Virus record (IMG/VR): IMGVR_UViG_3300030104_006170
Origin: a virus
Taxonomy: Duplodnaviria; Caudoviricetes
DNA: 64,000 nucleotides
Direction: 5' to 3' (one strand)
Below the pieces are notes generated by a model that saw only the letters and a list, made by a program, of their open reading frames with translations, was not told the origin of the DNA and did not search any database. Positions 51,316 to 51,456 of the stretch are shown here, piece by piece; position 1 is the stretch's first letter, and the number at the start of each line of letters is the position of its first letter. Both the position numbers and the translations under genes were made by a program.

Positions 51316-51421
51316 AAAAAACAAGGAGGGGGATTCCTTTCTCCTTTAGAGTTCTGCCCAATCTACACCAGCTATGAAATAACTTATTAGTTACCAGACC
51401 CTGTATGCCACCTCCTTGTAT
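51316..51421 (-). ncRNA. putative ~100-nt stand-alone structured RNA closed by an SD/anti-SD stem
   Basis: Own TAnnTTTG promoter; 9-bp terminal inverted repeat ACAAGGAGG (51419-51411)/CCUCCUUGU (51329-51321); U-tract; no ORF. Confidence 0.55.
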
Positions 51422-51425
51422 AGTA

Positions 51426-51456
51426 CAAAGATAAGGAAAATTAAAGAAATGACCAA
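51426..51456 (-). promoter_or_regulatory. Bacteroidetes sigma-type promoter TTG-N20-TATCTTTG
   Basis: Exact consensus; predicted +1 near 51421. Confidence 0.75.

Follow-up and report, generated by a model that had tools for sequence, protein, structure and literature searches.

We know of hardly any non-coding RNAs from phages of marine Bacteroidota. The element described here lies in a 64,000-nt stretch of viral DNA (Duplodnaviria, Caudoviricetes; IMG/VR record IMGVR_UViG_3300030104_006170), referred to in the following as the window, between the genes for a UvdE endonuclease and an ATP-dependent DNA ligase. In minus-strand order, the locus comprises uvdE (52589-51684), a hydrophobic open reading frame (ORF) of 36 aa, the intrinsic terminator of this unit (51474-51491; GAGAGGU-uuac-ACCUCUU followed by a U-run, found in terminator scans), a promoter (51426-51457), a 106-nt ORF-free stretch (51316-51421), a 12-nt spacer, a conserved gene for an acidic protein of 72 aa (51085-51303), a 43-aa ORF and the ligase gene (49650-50954; PF01068/PF14743 match). 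The last three run without gaps. An earlier note on this DNA had described the ORF-free stretch as a stand-alone RNA, whose closing stem pairs a Shine-Dalgarno (SD) sequence with an anti-SD (ASD) sequence like that at the 3' end of 16S rRNA, and had proposed that it mimics or titrates the SD:ASD system.

The window derives from an uncultured large marine phage, most likely with a Flavobacteriia host. This assignment is based on the promoter type and on the type IX secretion system (T9SS) C-terminal domain of one of the encoded proteins; a further gene codes for a tail-fiber-like protein of 3510 aa. Contigs related to it stem from marine metagenomes and are up to 100-300 kb long.

Anatomy and fold of the element

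The promoter is of the Bacteroidota sigma-A type, with a -33 TTTG (51457-51454), a 20-nt spacer and the -7 box TATCTTTG (51433-51426). We placed the +1 at 51421 because the TAnnTTTG (-7) box is found at -12 to -5 in transcription start site maps of Flavobacterium (PMC9723704), and because TATATTTG-N4-ATG occurs at three genes of the window (52594-52601, 60289-60296 and 63423-63430, all on the minus strand), implying early mRNAs that would be leaderless. The predicted transcript begins with AU and then enters the 5' arm of a closing helix, P1 (ACAAGGAGG, 51411-51419), which contains the SD-like letters. This arm pairs with the ASD-like 3' arm CCUCCUUGU (51321-51329) in nine perfect base pairs, and two further G-C pairs past a U-C mismatch can extend the helix (9-11 bp in total). 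Directly 3' of P1 follows a U5 run (51316-51320), which together with the paired U at 51321 makes a terminator-like U6 tail, and the A-rich spacer of 12 nt (51304-51315) leads from there to the ATG of the 72-aa gene. Promoter, predicted +1, SD-like arm and closing stem had all been located correctly on the minus strand in the earlier note.

P1 encloses two arms. Arm I (51365-51408) consists of P2 (51408-51401/51371-51365) and the P3 hairpin (51395-51389/51384-51378), with a conserved internal loop between them. Arm II (51330-51359), drawn from the RNAalifold consensus only, is formed by P4 (51359-51357/51332-51330) enclosing P5 (51351-51349/51343-51341) and contains invariant purine-rich stretches. 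One reading frame is open across the element, yet it lacks a conserved start codon, and the substitutions are spread evenly over the codon positions (6/7/7). Coding potential was rejected on these grounds, in agreement with the earlier description. The G+C content, which had been called high for this genome, is raised but not extreme (0.415 against 0.334 for the whole window, which places the element in the top 7% of 106-nt windows).

The folding energy of the single sequence is unremarkable (z = -0.8), so the case for a structure had to rest on comparison. Homologs of the 72-aa protein were aligned (A1), and loci fetched via these relatives, from marine metagenomes, entered a second alignment (A2) of nine distinct homologs of the element, which we call type A. 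Their RNAalifold consensus is a three-way junction of P1, arm I and arm II. Within it, 261/261 pair cells hold standard pairs, compared with 43-58% when the partners are slid by 1-3 columns, and the observed covariation score was reached in 0/500 shuffles. Every substitution among the nine homologs either falls in a loop or preserves pairing. Three pairs covary, located in P1, P2 and P3: pair 7:97 in P1 is G-C in two copies, G-U in five and A-U in two, while pairs 21:51 in P2 and 33:38 in P3 show compensatory changes from G-C to A-U and from C-G to U-A, respectively. Wobble changes in arm I occur at 17:54 and 28:43, and several conserved G-U pairs are valid solely on the minus-strand transcript. 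The pairs of P4 and P5 are invariant, and covariation neither supports nor contradicts those of arm II.

Conservation points in the same direction: the mean identity is 92.9% in the element but falls to 81.9% in the adjacent coding sequence (CDS), 80.5% in the promoter and 59.8% in the upstream DNA. The interior contains an 18-nt core that is invariant in all nine homologs. On this comparative evidence, the promoter-driven, structured, non-coding RNA of ~105 nt is real, folded and under selection.

Two candidate features were discarded. An alternative P2, in which AGGGUCUG pairs with CAGAACUCU, is present in the minimum free energy fold of the window sequence; L183 breaks two of its pairs, while the P2 of the RNAalifold consensus gains a compensatory pair. 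A hammerhead-like CUGAUAA lies in P3, varies between copies and has no Rfam match.

A portable cassette and the genes behind it

While the promoter is conserved across relatives, the site behind it occurs in four states. In the simplest, there is no cassette, and only 4 nt separate the promoter from the ATG of the 72-aa gene (TATCTTTG-N4-ATG), which would therefore be leaderless (L172, L174, L176 and L417-L422). L417-L422 lack both cassette and spacer, although their upstream DNA, including the terminator, is the same as in the window. In the second state, the interior is precisely missing, and what remains is a bare hairpin, P1 with a 3-nt loop, followed by U6 (L268-L277). The third is the type A RNA, the form found in the window. 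In the fourth, type B, the same helix base (ACAAGG/CCUUGU) closes an 82-nt RNA with a different interior and a U4 tail. Type B has compensatory changes of its own (L173, L289 and L290) and is not recognized by the type A model.

All type A copies in the comparison set precede the 72-aa gene. Type B precedes this gene as well, and together with the same promoter it is also found before a gene for a 147-aa HAD-like protein (L180, L436-L445 and L435, the last in an unrelated context on an IMG/VR contig); this exact protein is listed in 94 collection blocks. Furthermore, L288 is a mosaic: its identity to the window is 97-100% from the upstream DNA through promoter and element to the spacer and drops to 74.5% in the CDS, which we explain by a crossover at the border between cassette and gene. 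Taken together, the four states, the two different following genes and the L288 mosaic indicate a cassette that is optional and modular and can move along with its promoter, as far as can be read from these sequences.

The HAD-like gene is part of a larger module, which comprises type B, the 147-aa gene (MNIYLFDFD...) and a gene in opposite orientation for an AAA_33/zeta-toxin-like kinase (L180:1273-2450, L436-L445). The module sits as an insert between uvdE and a leaderless 72-aa gene, and it is very widely distributed across marine assemblies. At the corresponding upstream place, some relatives carry a tRNA (L411:101-208, also L174, L178 and L412-L414; RF00005, 42 bits) with an extra arm of ~36 nt and the anticodon loop CUGUCUC, which ARAGORN does not call.

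Whether the element stands alone, as first described, depends on the promoters around it. In the spacer between the U-run and the ATG, there is neither a TAnnTTTG box nor the motif ATATTTAT, and no intergenic gap lies ahead of the ligase. With no other promoter at hand, the 72-aa gene and the ligase depend on the element's promoter, or on transcription from uvdE that passes two terminator-like sites. Consequently, whatever else it may be, the element serves as a 5' leader, and P1 with its U-run must be leaky or regulated. As to ATATTTAT, it recurs 5-25 nt before start codons elsewhere in the window (e.g. at 47958, 54600-55160, 57853-59271, 60529-62154, 18044-22855 and 6072-6647) and probably marks phage-specific (middle/late) promoters, which differ from the host-type TAnnTTTG boxes.

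The 72-aa protein itself has 133 relatives in ocean metagenomes and no Pfam hit. It has an invariant C-terminal block, D-L-D-T-M-I-x-Y-F-x-x-T-E-E-Y-E-K-C, which we take to resemble a UVR-type motif.

Rfam 15 returned no family match for the element, whether the element, the last 18 kb or the whole window was searched, and no gathering-level hit anywhere in the window. The best hit over the element was 6A RNA on the opposite strand (21.9 bits at a gathering threshold of 41.2, E=0.29). The type B locus has no Rfam match either, ARAGORN found no tRNA or tmRNA in the window, and RF00005 gave no hit on the element. A covariance model of type A (R1) scored a single copy in the window with 131.8 bits, and plain terminators of the window also match it with the interior treated as deleted. 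Over ~1 Mb of loci and five IMG/VR records, R1 found only the known copies, plain terminators and one false positive within a conserved coding region (L007, L446-L448). Pattern searches of IMG/VR gave 0 matches to the exact stem, matches of the invariant 18-mer only to coding GVDWAD stretches, and at least 120 chance matches to the promoter-plus-arm pattern, none with the closing arm among the matches listed. The type B core has one true locus there, L435, and the type A core has 0 matches in GTDB genomes. Cultured phages show no DNA match to the window; the ligase is only ~30% identical to its best hits among them, and the 72-aa protein has one weak hit. In the ligase relatives, a synteny check showed no conservation of the DNA upstream of this gene.

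Contigs covering the element are present in three RNA-library runs (Logan), although such contigs show neither strand, ends nor an RNA template and speak neither for nor against transcription or termination. X19 covers 51304-51508 and includes both the promoter and the terminator upstream of it, X20 covers 51307-51432 and continues into a relative's gene start, and X21 covers 51318-51397 and continues past the U-run into a different downstream sequence. The loose ends after the type A body begin with ATG AAA GC in X21 and with ATG AAT ATA, similar to the HAD-like gene, in X22, so that type A may also precede genes other than the 72-aa gene.

The Shine-Dalgarno-like letters of the closing helix

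According to the model of the earlier note, a small RNA would mimic or titrate the SD:ASD system, as a decoy for bS21 or the 30S subunit or by pairing with the SD of host rpsU. The proposal has some appeal. In the window copy, AAGGAGGUG is paired to CCUCCUU, and the phage encodes a bS21 protein of 62 aa (39891-40079, plus strand; PF01165, 37 bits, above the cut-off), whose gene is preceded by the ATATTTAT motif and has no SD. Moreover, Flavobacteriia use an SD only on rpsU, and their ribosome hides its ASD (PMC7797042).

The comparison of homologs speaks against this model. The canonical ASD of Flavobacteriia is 3'-UUCCUCCA-5', and ACCUCCUUUCU is an ASD-containing control oligonucleotide (PMC7797042). 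With this oligonucleotide, the 3' arm of the window shares only the 7-mer CCUCCUU, which it has in common with the canonical ASD in just the window copy and L288; most homologs lack it, and the description of the arm as 16S-3'-end-like was not confirmed. In seven of the nine type A copies, the 3' arm contains CCUCU and not CCUCC (it reads CCUCUUUGU), the 5' arm contains AAAGAGG in two of the nine, and type B stems carry other letters (GGGGGAG, GGAAGAG, GGGAAAG). Neither the GGAGG nor the CCUCC core is thus conserved as sequence, and what the copies preserve is the pairing, a pattern that the earlier note had itself named as an argument against its model.

The two arms would also be poorly accessible. 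The predicted pair probability of P1 averages ~0.98 in all nine variants, and P1 alone as a hairpin has a predicted energy of about -19 kcal/mol, so that, in this folding model, neither the SD-like nor the ASD-like arm would be free for pairing. In addition, two ordinary terminators of the window share (A/G)AGAGG...CCUCUU arms, namely 38703-38721 on the plus strand (AAGAGGGU...CCCCUCUU) and the terminator upstream of the element, 51491-51474 on the minus strand (GAGAGGU...ACCUCUU). Judged by composition, the SD-like look is a house style of this phage's terminator stems. Finally, the window has both bS21 and the cassette, but neither type A nor type B is present in two relatives that also encode bS21, G002 (93% complete) and G004. 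Conserved letters, an accessible strand and co-occurrence with bS21 are the three features that would define an SD:ASD mimic, and all three are lacking, which leaves this explanation with very little probability. The attractive but unsupported tie between the element, the SD-blind ribosome of Bacteroidota and the phage bS21 is thereby removed.

A proposed leader and attenuator, and its alternatives

The explanation that we favor, at a probability of roughly one half, is an optional, portable, promoter-proximal leader or attenuator cassette that resembles the PeSL (promoter-early stem-loop) cassettes of T4-type phages. In this case, the host-type early promoter would start transcription at 51421, and the first ~105 nt would fold into the three-way junction, closed by a purine/pyrimidine helix of 9-11 bp in terminator style and followed by the U-run. 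A part of the polymerases would stop at the U-run and release a very stable small RNA of ~105 nt, both ends of which are paired. The remaining transcripts would read through and carry the structure at their 5' end, ahead of the 72-aa gene, the 43-aa ORF and the DNA ligase. For whichever gene follows, the A-rich spacer, which belongs to the inserted cassette, would provide a Bacteroidota-style leadered start that replaces the leaderless one. The cassette would in this way set the level and stability of early-gene expression in cis, and as DNA, its conserved promoter and helix would serve as a patch of homology for the exchange of modules between phages. The earlier note had offered a translation-sensing attenuator as its fallback: an attenuator for the downstream gene indeed fits the architecture, whereas nothing points to a sensing of translation.

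The predicted stop at the U-run draws on the likeness to intrinsic terminators. A G+C-rich helix is directly followed by U6, in the style of the other terminators of the window, and the minimal variant has a predicted folding energy of -10.2 kcal/mol, compared with -8 to -9 for real terminators. The loop, however, departs from the standard form. Intrinsic terminators have short loops of about 3-8 nt, while P1 encloses ~80 nt with four internal helices, and a short loop is seen only in the deletion variant of L268-L277 (3 nt).

Several points weigh against the favored explanation. Termination at the U-run and its efficiency are predictions, canonical terminators do not close an interior of 80 nt, and the tail of type B is no longer than U4. 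Simple attenuation or insulation would not require an 80-nt interior that is under purifying selection and has an invariant 18-nt core, which points to an additional, RNA-specific function. The homologs are close (86-97% identity), and as the copies are so closely related, the covariation is based on few independent events. Lastly, a search of four related IMG/VR records did not find the cassette, and it occurs as a single copy in the window, unlike PeSLs.

PeSL cassettes combine an early promoter with a stem-loop terminator and mediate modular shuffling in T4-type phages; the stem-loop of one subclass follows the -10 box and directly precedes the gene (Arbiol et al. 2010, PMC2839356). Like them, the cassette described here is a compact unit of a strong host-type early promoter and a G-run/C-run stem-loop with predicted terminator or attenuator behavior, and it is likewise associated with the insertion, deletion and replacement of small accessory genes among close relatives, with crossovers in the cassette. 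It differs in its Bacteroidota TAnnTTTG promoter, in its copy number, which both the covariance model and the promoter pattern put at one in the 64-kb window where PeSLs are repeated dozens of times, and in its stem, which encloses a three-way-junction RNA of ~80 nt that is itself conserved and covarying. A second parallel can be drawn to phage lambda, where the pR'-6S RNA-tR' unit places a short, promoter-proximal terminated transcript ahead of an operon. Here, too, a predicted intrinsic terminator follows the promoter within ~100-200 nt and would yield a short non-coding RNA unless it is read through. By contrast, we identified no Q-like antiterminator or binding site, the genes behind the element are early DNA-repair/replication genes and not late ones, and the terminator helix closes the whole RNA.

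Emphasis could also be placed on the released RNA. If termination at U6 were efficient, the stable ~105-nt product could act in trans, with its junction and loops binding a protein or RNA as a decoy or sponge, and downstream expression would be a by-product of leakage. Its partner could be, for example, a host factor or the Ro60/TROVE-like DUF2828 protein of the phage. We regard this as possible, at odds clearly below even. The interior is better conserved than the neighboring gene and contains the invariant 18-nt core, both ends are paired and followed by a U-tail as in stable non-coding RNAs, two alternative RNA types share one promoter slot, much like interchangeable RNA "morons", and a DUF2828/DUF7788 (Ro60/TROVE-vWA-like) protein is encoded 4 kb away (55439-56872, minus strand). 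Near this gene, including 57206-57631, Rfam gives nothing at E<=1. With Y RNA and YrlA, the element has in common its size of ~100 nt, the long terminal helix, the U-tail and this neighbor. Yet it matches no Rfam Y-RNA model at E<=10 nor any other Rfam family, a Ro-binding bulged-helix motif was not recognized, and the cassette occurs in contigs and contexts regardless of a DUF2828 gene. Moreover, none of the conserved downstream genes, among them the DNA ligase, has another promoter, the interior can be lost with the hairpin kept, close relatives lack the whole cassette, and no target or partner was identified. More tentative still is an extension of this idea, in which a portable early promoter would carry one of at least two exchangeable structured RNAs embedded in a terminator, A or B, as "RNA morons" that are released as stable trans-acting small RNAs. 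If so, marine Bacteroidota phages would trade regulatory RNAs as they do accessory genes, and the released RNAs might serve, for example, as decoys for an RNA-binding protein of host or phage, e.g. the Ro60/TROVE-like protein or a ribosome-associated factor.

Conversely, the element may not stop transcription at all. Stem-loops at the 5' terminus stabilize mRNAs in the 5' untranslated region of ompA and in the Bacillus STAB-SD of cryIIIA; STAB-SD is an SD-like sequence near the 5' end that is not used for initiation and must be free to pair with 16S rRNA. A pure 5' stabilizer or translation leader would turn a leaderless mRNA into a leadered one, its paired 5' end shielding it from 5'-end-dependent RNases and its A-rich spacer favoring Bacteroidota-type initiation. 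The structure starts at most 2 nt from the predicted 5' end and has SD-like letters near it as in STAB-SD, the A-rich spacer is part of the insert, the same gene is leaderless from the same promoter in relatives, and type B has only U4. But the SD-like letters are paired and not conserved, whereas they would have to be free in a STAB-SD, and the host ribosome hides its ASD. Since the helix with U6 resembles the real terminators of the phage, and a hairpin alone would suffice without a conserved three-way junction, we consider this unlikely. A riboswitch or attenuator that senses a ligand or factor by exchanging P1 for a local hairpin of the 3' arm is very unlikely. The 3' arm of the window can indeed also pair with the nearby AAGGAG (51346-51341), and the three-way junction with its conserved unpaired purines looks aptamer-like. 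The alternative helix (76-81/94-99), however, is mismatched in four of the nine copies, lacks covariation and scores about as well as slid controls do; P1, by prediction, is far too stable for its formation to hinge on a ligand, and the cassette types precede unrelated genes. Equally hard to credit is an element that acts as DNA alone, be it a recombination hotspot, a protein-binding inverted repeat or an origin. The cassette borders coincide with recombination break-points, and indels occur at the site, as such an element would have it; against it stand the many conserved G-U pairs, which would turn into C-A mismatches in a DNA cruciform or on the opposite strand, the compensatory changes within internal helices and the position exactly at the promoter +1.

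A regulatory cassette of promoter and stem-loop is thus known in kind, but the two structured RNA motifs found in this one, type A and type B, are undescribed. Both lack a match in Rfam, both lie at the exact predicted +1 of a conserved early promoter, and a terminator-type helix closes each. In abundant uncultured ocean phages, they are swapped in and out before early DNA-repair and nucleotide-metabolism genes, and they offer a concrete example of leaderless genes that are converted into leadered, possibly attenuated ones. Furthermore, they suggest that promoter cassettes can serve as recombination linkers, and extend the PeSL concept beyond the T4-type coliphages.

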